11,792 nucleotides of DNA from a virus (Duplodnaviria; Heunggongvirae; Uroviricota; Caudoviricetes): IMG/VR virus record IMGVR_UViG_2713896777_000002; one strand, given 5' to 3'. Below the pieces are notes generated by a model. It was not told where the DNA came from. It saw nothing but the letters and a program-made list of their open reading frames with translations, and searched no databases. Shown here one piece after another: positions 1-11,774 of the stretch (the first letter of the stretch is position 1; the number at the start of each line of letters is the position of its first letter). The position numbers were made by a program, and so were the translations under genes.

Positions 1-1338
1 ATCCTTTTTCGCCGCCGCCATCAGCGTGTTGTAATCCGCCTGCAGGATTTTCCCGTCTTTCAGTGCCTTGTTCAGTTCTTCCTGACGGGCGGTATATTTC
101 TCCAGCGGCGTCTGCAGCCGTTCGTAAGCCTTCTGCGCCTCTTCGGTATATTTCAGCCGTGACGCTTCGGTATCGCTCTGCTGCTGCGCATTTTTGTCCT
201 GTTGAGTCTGCTGCTCAGCCTTCTTTCGGGCGGCTTCAAGCGCAAGACGGGCCTTTTCACGATCATCCCAGTAACGCGCCCGCGCTTCATCGTTAACAAA
301 ATAATCATCCTTGCGCAGATTCCAGATGTCGTCTGCTTTCTTAAACGCAGCCTCTGCCTTAATCAGCATCTCCTGCGCGGTATCAGGACGACCAATATCC
401 AGCACCGCATCCCACATGGATTTGAAGGCCCGCGCAGTCCTGTCTGCCCAGGTCTCCAGCGTGCCCATGTTCTCTTTCAGGCGGCGGGTCTGGTCATCAA
501 ACCCTTTCGTTGCGGCCTCGTTCGCCGCCTGCAATGCCCCGGCTTCATCGCCGGAACGCTGCAACTGAGCAACATACGCAATCTGCTCCGCCGTCACGTT
601 ATGGAACTGGCGTGCCATCGCCGTCAGCCCCGACGTCGGGTCTGTGGTCAGCTTCCCGAAGGCTTCAGCGACCTTGTCCACCTCCACGCCGGATGCAGAG
701 GAGAAACGCGCCACACTCTGGCTGATGGACGCAATCTGAGCCTCACCGCTTACCCCCGCCTTAACCAGTGCGCTGAGTGACTCGCTGGTCTGGTTAAACG
801 TCAGCCCTGCCGCCTGCCCGGCTCTGGACAGGACCAGCATACGATCTGCCGTCAGTCCCGCCTGATTGCCGGAAAGGACCAGCGTTTTGTTGAAATCGGA
901 CAGGGTTGAGTTGCCCTGATACCAGGCATACGCCAGCGCACCGGTCGCCACCGCCAGCGAGGTGGCCCCCACCATCGGCAGGGTGATCGCACCGGCAAGC
1001 CCCCTGAACATGGGGATCATCCCGCCGAAGGAGTCCTTCACCTGCCCCCCCTGTTGCAGCAGGATCAGCCACGGACTTTGCCCGCCTGCAAGCTGCGTGG
1101 CCACGTCGGTGAACTGTGCAGGCAGCATACGCATGGCGGCTTTATACTGCCCGACGGAAATCCCCGCTTTCTGTGCAGCCAGCGCCTGTCGGCTCAGCGA
1201 CTGTTCAACGACTGCCGCTGTTTTTTTCGCATCACTTTCCGTACCGGAAAAATGACGCCTGACTCTGGCCATCTGCTCGTCAAATCTGGCCGCATCCAGA
1301 CTTAAATCAACGACCAGATCGCCTACCGGTTCAGCCAT
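1..1338 (-). CDS. H: Tail tape measure protein gpH, N-terminal 446 codons; the gene continues beyond the left edge of the window
   Basis: Minus-strand ATG at 1336-1338 sits 2 nt after the T stop (1331-1333). Translation begins MAEPVGD... and the reverse complement of 1-63 reads LKDGKILQADYNTLMAAAKKD, in frame with codon 1-3. Both match lambda gpH as I recall it. No stop before the window edge, so it is absent from the ORF track. Confidence 0.9.
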   Translation of the reverse strand, partial: MAEPVGDLVVDLSLDAARFDEQMARVRRHFSGTESDAKKTAAVVEQSLSRQALAAQKAGISVGQYKAAMRMLPAQFTDVATQLAGGQSPWLILLQQGGQVKDSFGGMIPMFRGLAGAITLPMVGATSLAVATGALAYAWYQGNSTLSDFNKTLVLSGNQAGLTADRMLVLSRAGQAAGLTFNQTSESLSALVKAGVSGEAQIASISQSVARFSSASGVEVDKVAEAFGKLTTDPTSGLTAMARQFHNVTAEQIAYVAQLQRSGDEAGALQAANEAATKGFDDQTRRLKENMGTLETWADRTARAFKSMWDAVLDIGRPDTAQEMLIKAEAAFKKADDIWNLRKDDYFVNDEARARYWDDREKARLALEAARKKAEQQTQQDKNAQQQSDTEASRLKYTEEAQKAYERLQTPLEKYTARQEELNKALKDGKILQADYNTLMAAAKKD

Positions 1339-2169
1339 ACCGGACTCCTCCTGCGATCCCTTCTGATACTGTCATCAGCATTACGTCATCCTCCGTCATG
1401 TCCGCCACATCCGGGGAAGCGGGGATAACTTCATTCCCGTCCGGGCCAAAGCGGACGCCTCCGGCAAGCCCTGCCGCTTTCTGCATCAGCACATCATCTT
1501 CAGGCTCTTCGTCAGCCTCACGCCGGTTCAGCAGACTGAAATCCAGCGGATGCATATCCGGATCGCTGAAAAACAGGCTGAGCACGGTGTACGTCAGCCC
1601 GGAAAAGTGCATATCCAGCAGAACATCATGAAAATAATGGGTACTGTAAAAGCGGTGCCAGTCGGCATACTCCGTGGATGACATCCCGGCAAGCATGGCA
1701 CGCCAGTCGGGTCGCCCCATCTCGCGCGCCAGTTTCAGGGCAAAACTCAGCTCACCGTCGAACACTTTCCCGCAGAAACAGGCTCTGCAGGCCCGGCGTC
1801 CTCTGCCTGTTCAGGGGCATCATTCACCACAAACTCATACATACCGGACAGCCGGTACACCACGTTTTCAGCATGAGAAATTGCCTCTGTGGGCCAGGTG
1901 GTAAGCACTTCCTGCTCAATCTGTTTAACGGCTTCATTCATGGAAGGCTGCTTTGTCTTCTGCGGATGGTTATGCCACAGGGACATCGCCACCACAAAAG
2001 CACCGGTTCTGATGGCGTCTTCCACTGTAAACTTCCGGTTGCTGTCTGACTCCGCCTGTTCTGCCTGCCGTTTCATCAGGGCGAGATGCTCAATACGCTG
2101 CAGGGCTGAAAGTTCAGAAAGCGTGACGGTCACGCCGTTATGTTCAAATGATTCGGTTTTCAGGAACAT
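1331..2169 (-). CDS. T: Tail assembly chaperone gpG-T, made by programmed -1 ribosomal frameshift from G into the T frame at the slippery site near 1765-1771
   Basis: The T-frame ORF (1331-1765, MFDGELSFALKLAREMGRPDWRAML...) overlaps the 3' end of G in the -1 frame and has no ribosome-binding context of its own. The heptamer GGGAAAG is present on the minus strand at 1765-1771, six codons before the G stop. This is the established lambda G/G-T arrangement. Confidence 0.85.
1747..2169 (-). CDS. G: Tail assembly chaperone gpG (140 aa)
   Basis: ORF-track translation MFLKTESFEHNGVTVTLSELSALQRIEHLALMKRQ... matches lambda gpG. ATG at 2167-2169, stop at 1747-1749. Position between V and T fits lambda order. 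Confidence 0.93.
   Translation of the reverse strand: MFLKTESFEHNGVTVTLSELSALQRIEHLALMKRQAEQAESDSNRKFTVEDAIRTGAFVVAMSLWHNHPQKTKQPSMNEAVKQIEQEVLTTWPTEAISHAENVVYRLSGMYEFVVNDAPEQAEDAGPAEPVSAGKCSTVS
1765..1771 (-). other. -1 programmed frameshift slippery heptamer G GGA AAG (G to G-T)
   Basis: Plus strand reads ctttccc at 1765-1771, which is GGGAAAG on the minus strand, inside the G/T overlap. Confidence 0.8.
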
Positions 2170-2184
2170 CGCTGACTCTCCGGA

Positions 2185-2925
2185 TTAACTGTCGGTGACA
2201 GTGATTTCTGCAACCGCAGCAAGTTCACCATTACCGGATACGACCGGAATGTTGACCTTGCCTGCAGCAACACCTTTCACGGTGATGGTCATACCACTGA
2301 CCGACACGGTGGCTTTTGTTTTATCCGCAGACACCGCACGGAAGCTCTTGTCGGTTGCGCCTTCCGGCTGGAATGCCACGGTCAGCGTGGTGCTCTGCCC
2401 TTTCACCACCGAGGTGCTGGCAGGCGTCACGGTCATGCCGGTTGCCGCTGTGACCGTGCTGCGATCTTCTGCCATCGACGGGCGTCCCACATTGGTGACC
2501 TTCACCGTGCGGGTGATCACTTCCTTCGCCGTCACCGCTTTACCGATACTGCTGACCCAGCCACGGAACACATCGACCGTGCCGTTCGGGAAGCGGATTT
2601 TATAGGCACGGGTATCACCTTCATTAAACCACGCCAGCAGCGCCTGCTGCCCCTGCTCTCCGGGCATCCACGCCAGCGTGAAGCTGGTATCTCCGGCTGA
2701 TTTCTGCCCCTGCCCGGTCGCAGTCCAGTCCGCATCTTCATCATCGAGATAGCTGTCGTCATAGGACTCAGCGGTCAGTTCGCCGGGCGTCAGGTCTTTA
2801 ACTTTTGCCAGACGCGACCAGTCAACGTCTGAAAGCGGATTCGCATAAGGGTCACCGCTCCCCTTATAAACCCACAGGGTGGTCCCGGCACCTTTCACCG
2901 GCATTACAGGATTTGGTACAGGCAT
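2185..2925 (-). CDS. V: Major tail tube protein gpV (246 aa)
   Basis: Translation from the ATG at 2923-2925 is [31 protein letters not shown]..., matching lambda gpV. A GAGGA Shine-Dalgarno lies upstream. The ORF-track start at 2955 is an upstream in-frame extension overlapping U and is unlikely to be used. Confidence 0.92.
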
Positions 2926-2932
2926 AGCGTCC

Positions 2933-3328
2933 TCACATTTCATAGGTAATGACATAAGTCAGATCGGCTGAACTCCACAGGCCCGCATCATCGTCGCGTC
3001 GGTAGTCATAGCCACTGGCCACCATACTGGTGATCAACTCTGACAGTGCCGGGATATCGCTCATCACCGGATAAATCCGGGACTCCATCCACGCATCCAG
3101 CTCTGAATCCGGCACCTGAGCAGGCAGGAAAACTTCNATATGCAGCTCCGCCTGCCAGGTATCGCTGTCCAGCTCTTCGCCCGTGTATTCAGCGCCGGTG
3201 AGATAAACGGCAACTGCCGGAAAATCCGCCTCATCAAAAACAGCGGGGCGACCATCAAAAAACGTCGCCCCGGTGTCATGCTTCTCCAGTGCATCCAGTA
3301 CGGCTGCACGGAGTTCAGTATGTTTCAT
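2933..3328 (-). CDS. U: Tail terminator protein gpU (131 aa)
   Basis: Translation [33 protein letters not shown]... matches lambda gpU. ATG at 3326-3328 overlaps the Z stop in an ATGA arrangement. One codon is X because of the ambiguous base at 3137. Confidence 0.92.
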
Positions 3329-3781
3329 CGCTTTATTACCATCCTCAGTTGATGCTGCAGCGCATAGCCCAGCTCTTTCGGAAGACGTTCACGCCGTATC
3401 CGCTCAATATTTTGTTTAAACGCCGTGGTCAGCGGCACCGCCATCGGGATTTTCACCACATCAATGGGGTAACGGTTTTTCCCGGCCACACGCTGCATNA
3501 CATGCCACCGNCCATTTTTCAGTTGCTGAATAAACGCGCCGGGAATACGACGGTTNCCCACCACAAGCACGCTGCCGCCACCTTTCAGGGATGAACGCTG
3601 CCCCTTTTTACGACGCCTGCGTCGGGACAGGACAACCCGCGCATTCCCCAGCTTGATTACGGGCAAATCCCCCCGGTTAACCTTGATTCTGGCCTGCGGA
3701 TTTTTAACCGTGGCCCTTTTCAGCCTGGCCCTTTCCTTTACCAGTTTCCGGCGTACCTTTGTCTCACGGGCAACCTGTGAC
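3325..3781 (-). CDS. Z: Tail completion protein gpZ, C-terminal portion only; the 5' end is lost in the N gap
   Basis: Translation immediately after the gap reads SQVARETKVRRKLVKERARLKRATVKNPQARIKVNRGDLPVIKLGNARVV...LRMVIKR, matching about residues 42-192 of lambda gpZ. Stop at 3325-3327. Three X residues come from ambiguous bases at 3499, 3511 and 3556. Confidence 0.88.
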
Positions 3782-3847
3782 NNNNNNNNNNNNNNNNNNN
3801 NNNNNNNNNNNNNNNNNNNNNNNNNNNNNNNNNNNNNNNNNNNNNNN
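3782..3847. other. Assembly gap: run of 66 N
   Basis: Directly visible as 66 consecutive n characters. Flanked by FII sequence on the high-coordinate side and Z sequence on the low-coordinate side. Confidence 1.
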
Positions 3848-4167
3848 CGCCCAAGCCAGAGATGACAGCTTCCGCCATCATCCGGCGAAATCCGGTCTAT
3901 CCAGAAGTTTTCCTCACCGATGGTCAGCGTGTCTCCACGCCGCAGCTGCCGCACATCATCAGTCCGGACAAACAGGGACGGGCTGGAGCCTTCAACGCGC
4001 ACGCCCTGTCCGGCATAGCTGATATTTTCAGGGTCATCAAAAACACCACGTATCACAGCACCGGACTGCTCACCGGATGTCATGGTGGCTGACGTTCCCA
4101 TGTACCCGCGTATCGTTTCATCGGCGCAGGCAATGGCAGCATCGAACAGGTTATCGAAATCAGCCAC
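3848..4167 (-). CDS. FII: Head-tail connector protein gpFII, N-terminal about 106 codons; the 3' end is lost in the N gap
   Basis: Translation MADFDNLFDAAIACADETIRGYMGTSATMTSGEQSGAVIRGVFDDPENISYAGQGVRVEGSS...SCHLWLG matches lambda gpFII. The start codon is GTG (plus strand cac at 4165-4167), preceded by GGGAGG. Confidence 0.88.
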
Positions 4168-7358: not shown

Positions 7359-11039
<3,681 letters not shown>

Positions 11040-11762: not shown

Positions 11763-11774
11763 AGGTCGCCGCCC
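11763..11774. other. cosN: the 12-bp cohesive-end sequence (reverse complement of GGGCGGCGACCT), present here in joined form
   Basis: Plus strand 11763-11774 is aggtcgccgccc. The reverse complement of 11751-11792 reads gcgatccgacaggttacg|gggcggcgacctcgcgggttttcg, i.e. lambda right end joined to lambda left end as I recall them. Confidence 0.85.

Follow-up and report, generated by a model that had tools for sequence, protein, structure and literature searches.

The DNA analyzed here, a stretch of 11,792 nucleotides that we refer to as the window, carries a lambda-type late operon from Nu1 to the start of H and spans cos. Nu1, A, W, B, C, D, E, FI, U, V, G, T and the start of H are all readable at full length, and over its whole length the window shares 97.9% identity with lambda-like phages and as much as 99.2% with E. 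coli prophages. The FII/Z junction is interrupted by a run of 66 Ns (3782-3847), and an ORF joining FII to Z (3325..4167, 280 amino acids), which looked like a disabling deletion, turned out to be an artefact of these Ns. The genes considered in this work follow one another in the order V (2925..2185), G (2169..1747), T (1765..1331) and H (from 1338), with Pfam matches to TTP_12, TAC_2, tail_T and TMP_2, respectively, and the features of this part are as follows:

2185..2925, minus strand: gene V, major tail tube protein, directly upstream of G (PF16461, E = 1.6e-70, plus Big_2)
2178..2181, minus strand: Shine-Dalgarno-like GGAG, 8 nt before the G start codon (upstream sequence GTTAATCCGGAGAGTCAGCG ATG)
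1747..2169, minus strand: gene G, tail assembly chaperone, 140 codons, ATG at 2169 and TGA at 1749..1747 (ORF list and translation)
1765..1771, minus strand: slippery heptamer G_GGA_AAG, predicted -1 shift site (from its sequence and register, the same site in lambda and its retention in ~136 relatives)
1331..1765, minus strand: T segment in the -1 frame, 144 codons, from GTG at 1765 to TGA at 1333..1331 (translation)
1687..1757, minus strand: predicted RNA structure, possible frameshift stimulator, starting 7 nt 3' of the heptamer (MFE -47.7 kcal/mol, z = -2.05)
1..1338, minus strand: 5' part of gene H, tape measure protein, cut by the window edge (PF06791 TMP_2, E = 2e-70)

The identity of the two central genes is well supported by profile searches. 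G matched PF06894 (E = 5e-59) and the TIGR01674 equivalog (215 bits, with a cut-off of 74), while T matched PF06223 (E = 2e-14) and the TIGR01715 equivalog (189 bits, well above the cut-off). The family phrog_32165, which represents fused GT proteins, was matched by G over its positions 1-142 and by T over positions 140-285, and a search of PDB sequences with the GT fusion returned 0 matches at E <= 1. Translation of both frames bore out the overlap of T with G in the -1 frame that an earlier note on this DNA had described; the T frame is -1 relative to G, is open from about 1810 and, counted from its GTG, overlaps the 3' end of G by 19 nt. On one side of this pair, V corresponds to lambda 8955-9695 and matches lambda V at 242 of the 247 positions aligned, which comprise 246 residues and the stop. 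A longer V ORF of 256 amino acids (2955..2185) was rejected because its upstream in-frame ATG has no Shine-Dalgarno sequence, and the start at 2925 is the one found in lambda. On the other side, the ATG of H at 1338 overlaps the T stop (ATGGCTGA), and 444 of the 446 H residues available are identical to those of lambda.

The earlier note had placed a GGGAAAG heptamer at 1765-1771 on the minus strand, six codons before the G stop, and both the sequence and the reading frame confirmed this position. The motif is read on the minus strand as 1771..1765, and the G-frame codons around it are GCG GGA AAG TGT TCG ACG GTG AGC TGA, so the X_XXY_YYZ register is G_GGA_AAG, with five sense codons between the heptamer and TGA as the sixth codon. 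Mutation of the heptamer had been named as a ground for abandoning the claim, and the actual sequence carries GGGAAAG unaltered and in register. Across the site, the -1 frame reads GGG AAA GTG TTC; upstream of the heptamer it meets a stop 13 codons away, at about 1813, and downstream it stays open for 146 codons up to TGA 1333..1331, a count that includes GGG and AAA from the heptamer.

The heptamer alone does not exceed chance frequency, as 2 copies of bare GGGAAAG were counted on both strands of the window and 1.7 +/- 1.2 in shuffled sequences. The second copy, at 7818-7824 on the plus strand, was discarded as a chance match that lies antisense to gene B. Specificity comes from the context of the heptamer and not from chance: among the five in-frame X_XXY_YYZ heptamers in minus-strand genes of the window, only the G site has a -1 frame that runs past the stop of its own gene, by 413 nt, and this site is flanked by the tail tube gene V on one side and the tape measure gene H on the other. 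No GGAGG-like run was found in GGGCCTGCAGAGCCTGTTTCTGC, the sequence inspected for a Shine-Dalgarno-like element 6-17 nt upstream of the heptamer, and Sharma et al. scored the gpG cluster without such an element (PMC4066793).

The same arrangement is present in lambda G / G-T (lambda 9711-10549), which shares the heptamer, its register and its distance to the G stop, along with the length of the G ORF (140 amino acids), the length of the T segment (144 codons) and the neighbors V and H. Alignment to lambda, proposed in the earlier note as a check, recovered the same genes with 97.6% DNA identity over G-T (20 point differences in 839 nt), and none of the differences falls in the overlap between the heptamer and the G stop. 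G differs from lambda G at 5 amino acids, and T is 100% identical in amino-acid sequence; its 3 DNA differences each affect the third base of a T-frame codon and are hence synonymous, which indicates purifying selection. The closest match to G-T was 2B8/ev207, at 99.4%. The programmed -1 frameshift of lambda G / G-T was reportedly described by Levin, Hendrix & Casjens in 1993, and the conserved arrangement of the lambda-type G/GT frameshift is said to have been set out by Xu, Hendrix & Duda in 2004.

We conclude, with a probability of about 0.95, that this element is an intact copy of the programmed -1 ribosomal frameshift of lambda G/GT, carried by a lambda-like prophage or phage of E. coli. 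The Pfam and NCBIfam matches, the placement between V and H and the documented shift site of lambda agree with the description of this locus as a classical tail assembly chaperone recoding site, and we found no evidence in the window sequence against the frameshift reading. What this work shows directly is the layout of the sequence, its homology and gene order, how well the site is conserved, and that T lacks a start of its own; that the shift takes place here, how often it does so and what the proteins do would follow by analogy with lambda.

In the mechanism we propose, the majority of ribosomes would translate G from ATG 2169 to TGA 1749..1747, releasing the 140-amino-acid chaperone gpG, and a few percent would slip at the heptamer while the P site holds tRNA-Gly paired to GGA and the A site holds tRNA-Lys paired to AAG. 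The two tRNAs would move back by one base and re-pair with GGG and AAA, after which the T frame would be read from GTG 1765 to 1331. The product would be a 279-amino-acid fusion of G residues 1-135 and the 144 T residues, and the T segment would be made only as the C-terminal part of this G-T fusion. If the proteins behave as they do in lambda, gpG would coat the tape measure protein gpH together with the G portion of gpGT, whose T portion would recruit the tube protein gpV.

For lambda, PMC5009743 describes the G/GT -1 frameshift, the roles of the proteins and a G:GT ratio of about 30:1; the shift frequency determines this ratio, and tails assemble correctly only if it is kept. In PMC5009743 and PMC3296357, G and GT are both reported to be required for tail assembly and to be absent from the virion. 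The lambda shift site is given as GGGAAAG in Table 1 of PMC3296357 and in passages of PMC7618472, and the same two sources put the share of translation that remains in the 0 frame at about 96% and state that the shift rate depends on mnm5s2U34 of tRNA-Lys. G_GGA_AAG is considered highly shift-prone in E. coli (PMC4066793; PMC6924986). Bare GGGAAAG tested by Sharma et al. in a reporter without a stimulator gave 0.28% frameshifting (PMC4066793), and because this value is so low, the rate of ~4% in lambda probably needs more context. The G/GT frameshift itself is already known, and what we describe is a textbook recoding in a near-copy of lambda; as a discovery it carries little weight, being real but ordinary and found in most E. 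coli genomes.

The question of whether T has its own start is central to this reading. T could be a separate gene, started at GTG 1765 or at an internal ATG, with the heptamer merely incidental. A GTG located exactly at 1765 does open a 144-codon ORF, T is annotated from this GTG in the lambda RefSeq record, in 2B8 and by PGAP, and an internal Met start is given in the records of PhiR12_1, VT1-Sakai, mEp213 and 1720a-02, which are examples of the pipeline miscall that the earlier note had predicted. However, this GTG is formed by the final base of the heptamer and the TG that comes after it, and its sole Shine-Dalgarno-like match is the GGGA of the heptamer, which ends 1 nt before the GTG and is not usable as such. 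Pairing with the anti-Shine-Dalgarno sequence was -4.3 kcal/mol at GTG 1765, compared with -6.6 at the G start (background -2.9 +/- 2.2) and -10.3 at the H start, where a strong AGGAGG is present, and the internal ATGs of T were at background level, at about -2 kcal/mol. The GTG is also not conserved, as relatives have GTC, GCA or GCC in its place. In these relatives, the first start codon of the T frame falls at codon 10-24, and the T residues ahead of it are conserved (x-x-x-x-E-L-x-F-x-L-x-L-A-R-E-F/M-G-R-P-D-W-R); in mEp213, LLS and Kp4865-4, the first start is at T codon 24 and codons 1-23 are conserved as protein. In addition, the slippery heptamer is retained at this place through sequence variants, and the products found in published work on lambda are G and GT (PMC5009743, PMC3296357). 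We consider a separate T gene very improbable. The claim that T lacks a start context of its own thus stands in essence, with no usable Shine-Dalgarno sequence and an unconserved GTG, and requires the nuance that a GTG is present at 1765. Judged from its sequence, T appears to have no credible independent start, which points to the programmed -1 frameshift of lambda as the mechanism.

Conservation of the site was as claimed, with a heptamer at the same aligned position in about 136 related loci. A shift-prone heptamer was present there in all 133 related loci that were scored (GGGAAAG in 105, GGAAAAG in 24, AAAAAAG in 3 and GGGAAAA in 1), and GGAAAAG was read by eye at that place in 3 more loci from Kluyvera. 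In 132/133 loci, 0-5 sense codons separate the heptamer from the G stop, the exception being a decayed Shigella locus (L032) with stops in T, and in all 133 the -1 frame is open for merely 2-22 codons upstream of the heptamer.

A minority of -1 frame products would also result if the frame were changed at the level of transcription, by RNA polymerase slipping on the A run, and not by the ribosome. For transcriptional slippage to be productive, the run has to be about 7 bases long or longer, and we reject this route, whose probability we regard as negligible, because the A run here has just 3 bases. Even though transcriptional slippage is employed by some length-control systems (PMC5009743), the variants G_GAA_AAG and G_GGA_AAG preserve the logic of tRNA re-pairing and not a long homopolymer, and the lambda rate is described in the tRNA-Lys passages of PMC3296357 as responding to anticodon modification, which is a ribosomal effect.

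The site could be a relic in a defective prophage with a silent late operon, its recoding signal preserved in sequence but out of use. The crossing of cos fits an integrated, circularised or concatemeric copy, and lambda-like late regions were found in 4919 of 5426 complete E. coli genomes, at a median of 2 places per genome, many of them likely cryptic; decayed copies are known, such as L032 of Shigella with its stops in T. In the window, however, all readable ORFs are full length, V, G, T and the start of H share 96-100% of their residues with lambda, and 3/3 of the T substitutions are synonymous, which indicates purifying selection. A relic is therefore unlikely in our view, and it bears on the use of the site and not on the identity of the element. 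Since the window is a draft with Ns, possibly from a defective prophage, the site may never be used. For the integrity of the tail assembly module, the earlier note went too far in taking the heptamer as proof, given that only the 5' part of H falls within the window, that M, L, K, I and J are beyond its edge and that a gap of 66 Ns interrupts FII/Z.

It is possible, though doubtful, that the lambda-type shift is aided by an RNA structure of ~70 nt located 5-7 nt downstream, with a strength tuned to the heptamer. As modeled, this structure may consist of an outer stem and a long GC-rich hairpin within the conserved LAREMGRPDWRAMLAG part of T. In the window, the predicted outer stem has 8 bp (1757-1750 with 1694-1687) and encloses a predicted hairpin of 13-14 bp (about 1731-1716 with 1711-1696). 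Independent folds gave the same architecture in 7/12 lineages, and when the structure was placed on 33 sequences, 89.9% of cells were paired, compared with 23-42% when the partners were slid; compensatory changes were seen at pairs 16-84 and 42-75. Both the outer stem and the z score differed by heptamer, with 10 bp and about -3.5 for G_GAA_AAG and 8 bp and about -2.1 for G_GGA_AAG.

Other results were negative. Double changes were found at 4 pairs, no better than the 3.2 of shuffled data, RNAalifold on the 33-sequence broad alignment recovered only fragments (-7.2 kcal/mol) and not the structure, and synonymous diversity was not suppressed (0.39-0.40 inside the structure vs 0.43 downstream); because of these three results, we keep the structure as a possibility only. 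It is also absent from Klebsiella and Providencia relatives. Levin et al. reportedly saw no required secondary structure, which we do not use as evidence. In the analysis of Sharma et al., no more than 51% of the gpG cluster had a hairpin, and the ddG was 0.02 (PMC4066793). If the structure is real, such a stimulator would explain the ~4% of lambda vs the ~0.3% of bare GGGAAAG in the reporter, and a structure that sets the shift rate would refine a classic model system, leaving the overall picture the same.

Comparison with related systems places the site within a broader family. N15 gene 14/15 and enterobacterial prophage relatives encode homologous G and T, with the shift at the same aligned position and usually 5 codons before the G stop, as here. 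However, the N15-type heptamer is G_GAA_AAG and not G_GGA_AAG, T is shorter (113-117 codons), and the stem predicted downstream has 2 more base pairs and a spacer of 5 nt; G_GAA_AAG has been termed "less slippery" in vitro (PMC6924986). Stx-converting phages of the VT1-Sakai type also have homologous G and T with the site at the same position, but their heptamer is A_AAA_AAG and G is only about 50% identical. The A_AAA_AAG type was assigned by Sharma et al. to a true tail-assembly-chaperone frameshift cluster (PMC4066793). The signals of dnaX (tau/gamma) and IS911/IS3 likewise rely on tandem slippage on X_XXA_AAG and on the single tRNA-Lys of E. coli (PMC4066793, PMC5009743). Unlike the site described here, those signals shift at high rates and have proven stimulators, which may be a Shine-Dalgarno-like element upstream, a hairpin or pseudoknot on the 3' side, or both, and while the dnaX product is shortened, the G-T product would be an extension made at a low rate.

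The practical value of these findings lies in annotation. The correct model is G together with a joined G-T CDS, join(2169..1765, 1765..1331) on the minus strand, and a free-standing T gene, which is still found in the RefSeq record of lambda, in PGAP output and in several GenBank records, is the wrong one. Among the records examined, the frameshift is marked, as a joined CDS or a shift-site feature, only in 434, LLS and N15, and the record of HK630 lists a "tail assembly protein GT."

The shift site is already known: it is the G/GT recoding site of lambda, carried here by a near-identical relative. Read directly from the sequence, GGGAAAG lies at 1771..1765 on the minus strand, inside the 140-codon G ORF (2169..1747(-)), and because the G-frame codons run GCG GGA AAG TGT TCG ACG GTG AGC TGA, its register is G_GGA_AAG with five sense codons left before the G stop, as the earlier note had correctly placed and described it. 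The -1 frame has a stop 13 codons upstream of the heptamer and then stays open over 146 codons until a TGA at 1333..1331, which overlaps the H ATG (ATGGCTGA). The bare motif is not above chance (2 matches on both strands of the window against 1.7 expected). Unlike the heptamer alone, its context is more than chance, as only one of the five in-frame X_XXY_YYZ heptamers in minus-strand genes of the window, this one, has a -1 frame that passes its own gene's stop, by 413 nt.

For the G ORF, the Pfam match was PF06894 at E 5e-59 and the NCBIfam match was the equivalog TIGR01674, 'phage tail assembly chaperone G', at 215 bits over a cut-off of 74. For the T segment they were PF06223 (E 2e-14) and, with 189 bits over a cut-off of 77, TIGR01715 'phage tail assembly protein T'. 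PHROG 32165, a family of fused GT proteins with 290 positions, is matched by G at 1-142 and by T at 140-285. Alignment to lambda G/T, a check proposed in the earlier note, gave 20 differing positions in 839 nt, with five amino-acid changes in G and none in T, where the three DNA changes all fall at T-frame third positions, the pattern that translation of this frame would leave. Both neighbours are lambda-like as well: V (PF16461) is identical to lambda V at 242/247 aligned positions and H (PF06791) to lambda H at 444/446. Together with the conserved site and a T that lacks a start of its own, these family matches and neighbours support the frameshift interpretation.

Few heptamers slip as readily in E. 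coli as G_GGA_AAG (PMC4066793; PMC6924986). In lambda, established work (PMC5009743; PMC3296357; PMC4493119; PMC7618472) has shown that a -1 shift at this heptamer yields gpG and gpGT in a ratio of about 30:1; ~96% of translation keeps the zero frame. Of the gpGT fusion, the G part binds the tape measure gpH, as gpG itself does, and the T part binds the tube protein gpV. Neither protein stays in the finished tail, and their ratio is important for assembly. The lambda rate is also sensitive to mnm5s2U34 modification of tRNA-Lys (PMC3296357). By analogy, a -1 shift at 1771..1765 would produce a G-T fusion besides G, with a predicted length of 279 aa and the junction ...PVSAGK|VFDGEL...

Annotation suggests instead that T starts independently at the GTG at 1765, which is present in the window and is the start used in lambda RefSeq, phage 2B8 and PGAP. 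In RefSeq lambda NC_001416 (10115-10549), T is a CDS of its own, 144 aa long and starting at this GTG, and no ribosomal-slippage join is given; E. coli genomes annotated by PGAP do the same (e.g. NZ_CP114128, locus L138 10129-10563). However, its sole anti-SD match is the GGGA of the heptamer (-4.3 kcal/mol), ending one base 5' of the GTG, compared with -6.6 for G and -10.3 kcal/mol for H; internal T ATGs, at about -2, are at background (-2.9 +/- 2.2). At the equivalent codon PhiR12_1 has GTC, Stx phages have GCA and the N15 group has GCC. In mEp213, LLS and Kp4865-4 the first T-frame start codon is codon 24, yet the 23 residues before it are still conserved (ALASELxFVLxLAREFGRPDWRA). The weak SD, the unconserved GTG and these conserved residues argue against an independent start and, at the level of sequence, for the view that translation must enter T from G. 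The earlier remark that pipelines miscall T held among the records examined: four start T from an internal Met, at positions that differ between records, and three from the GTG, and only 434, LLS and N15 mark the frameshift by a joined CDS or shift-site feature. The HK630 record names its product 'tail assembly protein GT'.

Among relatives drawn from GenBank phages, one genome per bacterial species and IMG/VR, a shift-prone heptamer occupies the same aligned position in all 133 scorable loci (GGGAAAG 105, GGAAAAG 24, AAAAAAG 3, GGGAAAA 1). Its sequence changes across clades, and its position and A_AAG/A_AAA end are kept (alignment A3 of related loci, columns 1-7):

G_GGA_AAG: lambda group, PhiR12_1
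A_AAA_AAG: Stx phages
G_GAA_AAG: N15, mEp213, LLS, Enterobacter, Citrobacter, Kluyvera, Klebsiella, Sodalis, two Providencia prophages
G_GGA_AAA: one Providencia locus

Three Kluyvera loci outside the motif-scored set also have GGAAAAG there. The -1 frame opens just 2-22 codons upstream of the heptamer in 133/133 loci, and the G stop follows within 0-5 sense codons in 132, the exception being a decayed Shigella copy. In Providencia the stop is directly 3' of the heptamer. The decayed copy (L032, Shigella flexneri CP182557) still carries GGGAAAG, with G and T both broken by stop codons; of two other decayed loci, L057 has its G interrupted 19 codons before the heptamer and L059 loses the T frame after codon 61. 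Near-identical lambda G-T (96-100%) also occurs in loci L013-L030, on low-coverage contigs, several of ~48.5 kb, in assemblies labeled Neobacillus, Pseudomonas, Shewanella, Kitasatospora, Chromatium, Paenibacillus, Enterococcus and others; these are most likely laboratory lambda DNA carry-over instead of real prophages.

Bare GGGAAAG gives 0.277% frameshifting; adding the IS911 stimulators raises this to 3.8%, and adding the IS3 pseudoknot to 43% (Sharma et al. supplement, PMC4066793). Against 0.277%, the lambda rate of ~4% suggests some help from context. A fold of the 115 nt after the heptamer gave one candidate:

1687-1757, minus strand: predicted RNA structure starting 7 nt 3' of the heptamer

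An 8-bp outer stem (1757-1750 with 1694-1687) surrounds a 13-14 bp GC-rich hairpin (MFE -47.7 kcal/mol, z = -2.05). The same architecture was predicted in 7 of 12 lineages folded independently (z -1.8 to -3.6), recurring in lambda, in Stx-phage and N15-type relatives and in several related enterobacterial prophages, and was absent from the Klebsiella and Providencia folds. N15-type lineages have a predicted 10-bp outer stem and 5-nt spacer, the outer stem being longer where the heptamer is the weaker G_GAA_AAG. Across 33 distinct sequences 89.9% of cells pair, compared with 23-42% with slid partners; outer-stem pair 16-84 alternates between G-C (12) and A-U (16), and pair 42-75 is U-A in Providencia. 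RNAalifold did not recover the structure from the broad alignment, the count of covarying pairs was no better than in shuffles, and synonymous diversity was not lowered (0.39-0.40 within the structure vs 0.43 downstream). A hairpin with a 7-nt spacer had been noted earlier in 51% of the gpG cluster of Sharma et al. (PMC4066793); its excess stability was negligible, and synonymous sites gave no signal. The predicted structure is rated as no more than a possible stimulator.

The long minus-strand ORFs follow the lambda late operon: Nu1, A, W, B, C/Nu3, D, E, FI, (FII, Z), U, V, G, T and the start of H, of which the first 446 codons precede the window edge. Whole-window identity is 97.9% to lambda and lambda-like phages and up to 99.2% to prophages in complete E. 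coli genomes, 4919/5426 of which contain a related region; in region 1..3781, window position x corresponds to lambda 11880 - x. The earlier claim that the site shows an intact tail assembly module does not follow, because H is truncated by the window edge, M through J lie outside the window and a 66-N gap interrupts the FII/Z junction. This run (3782-3847) takes the place of ~167 nt that in lambda span the end of FII and the start of Z. With single Ns at 3137, 3499, 3511 and 3556 it makes the window a draft or masked sequence, unsuited to a judgement of FII and Z. A 280-aa 'FII-Z fusion' ORF (3325..4167(-)) was rejected as a product of the 66-N run. We also rejected V as 256 aa from the ATG at 2955 (ORF list 2185-2955(-), overlapping U), an ATG that lacks an SD (-2.2 kcal/mol). 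Started at 2925, as in lambda, V has 246 aa and an SD of -5.9 kcal/mol.

In gene H, seven Gs at 1045-1051(-) read G_GGG_GGG in frame at codon 96, followed by a -1 frame open for 85 codons. The run is identical in lambda (10827-10833), is not known to have a function, and may be just a homopolymer liable to slippage or to misreading in sequencing. The lambda cohesive-end sequence GGGCGGCGACCT lies at 11763-11774(-), and a further 18 nt, to 11792, match the lambda right end (...CGACAGGTTACG), which points to a circularised, integrated or concatemeric copy as the source of the window and not to a linear virion end.
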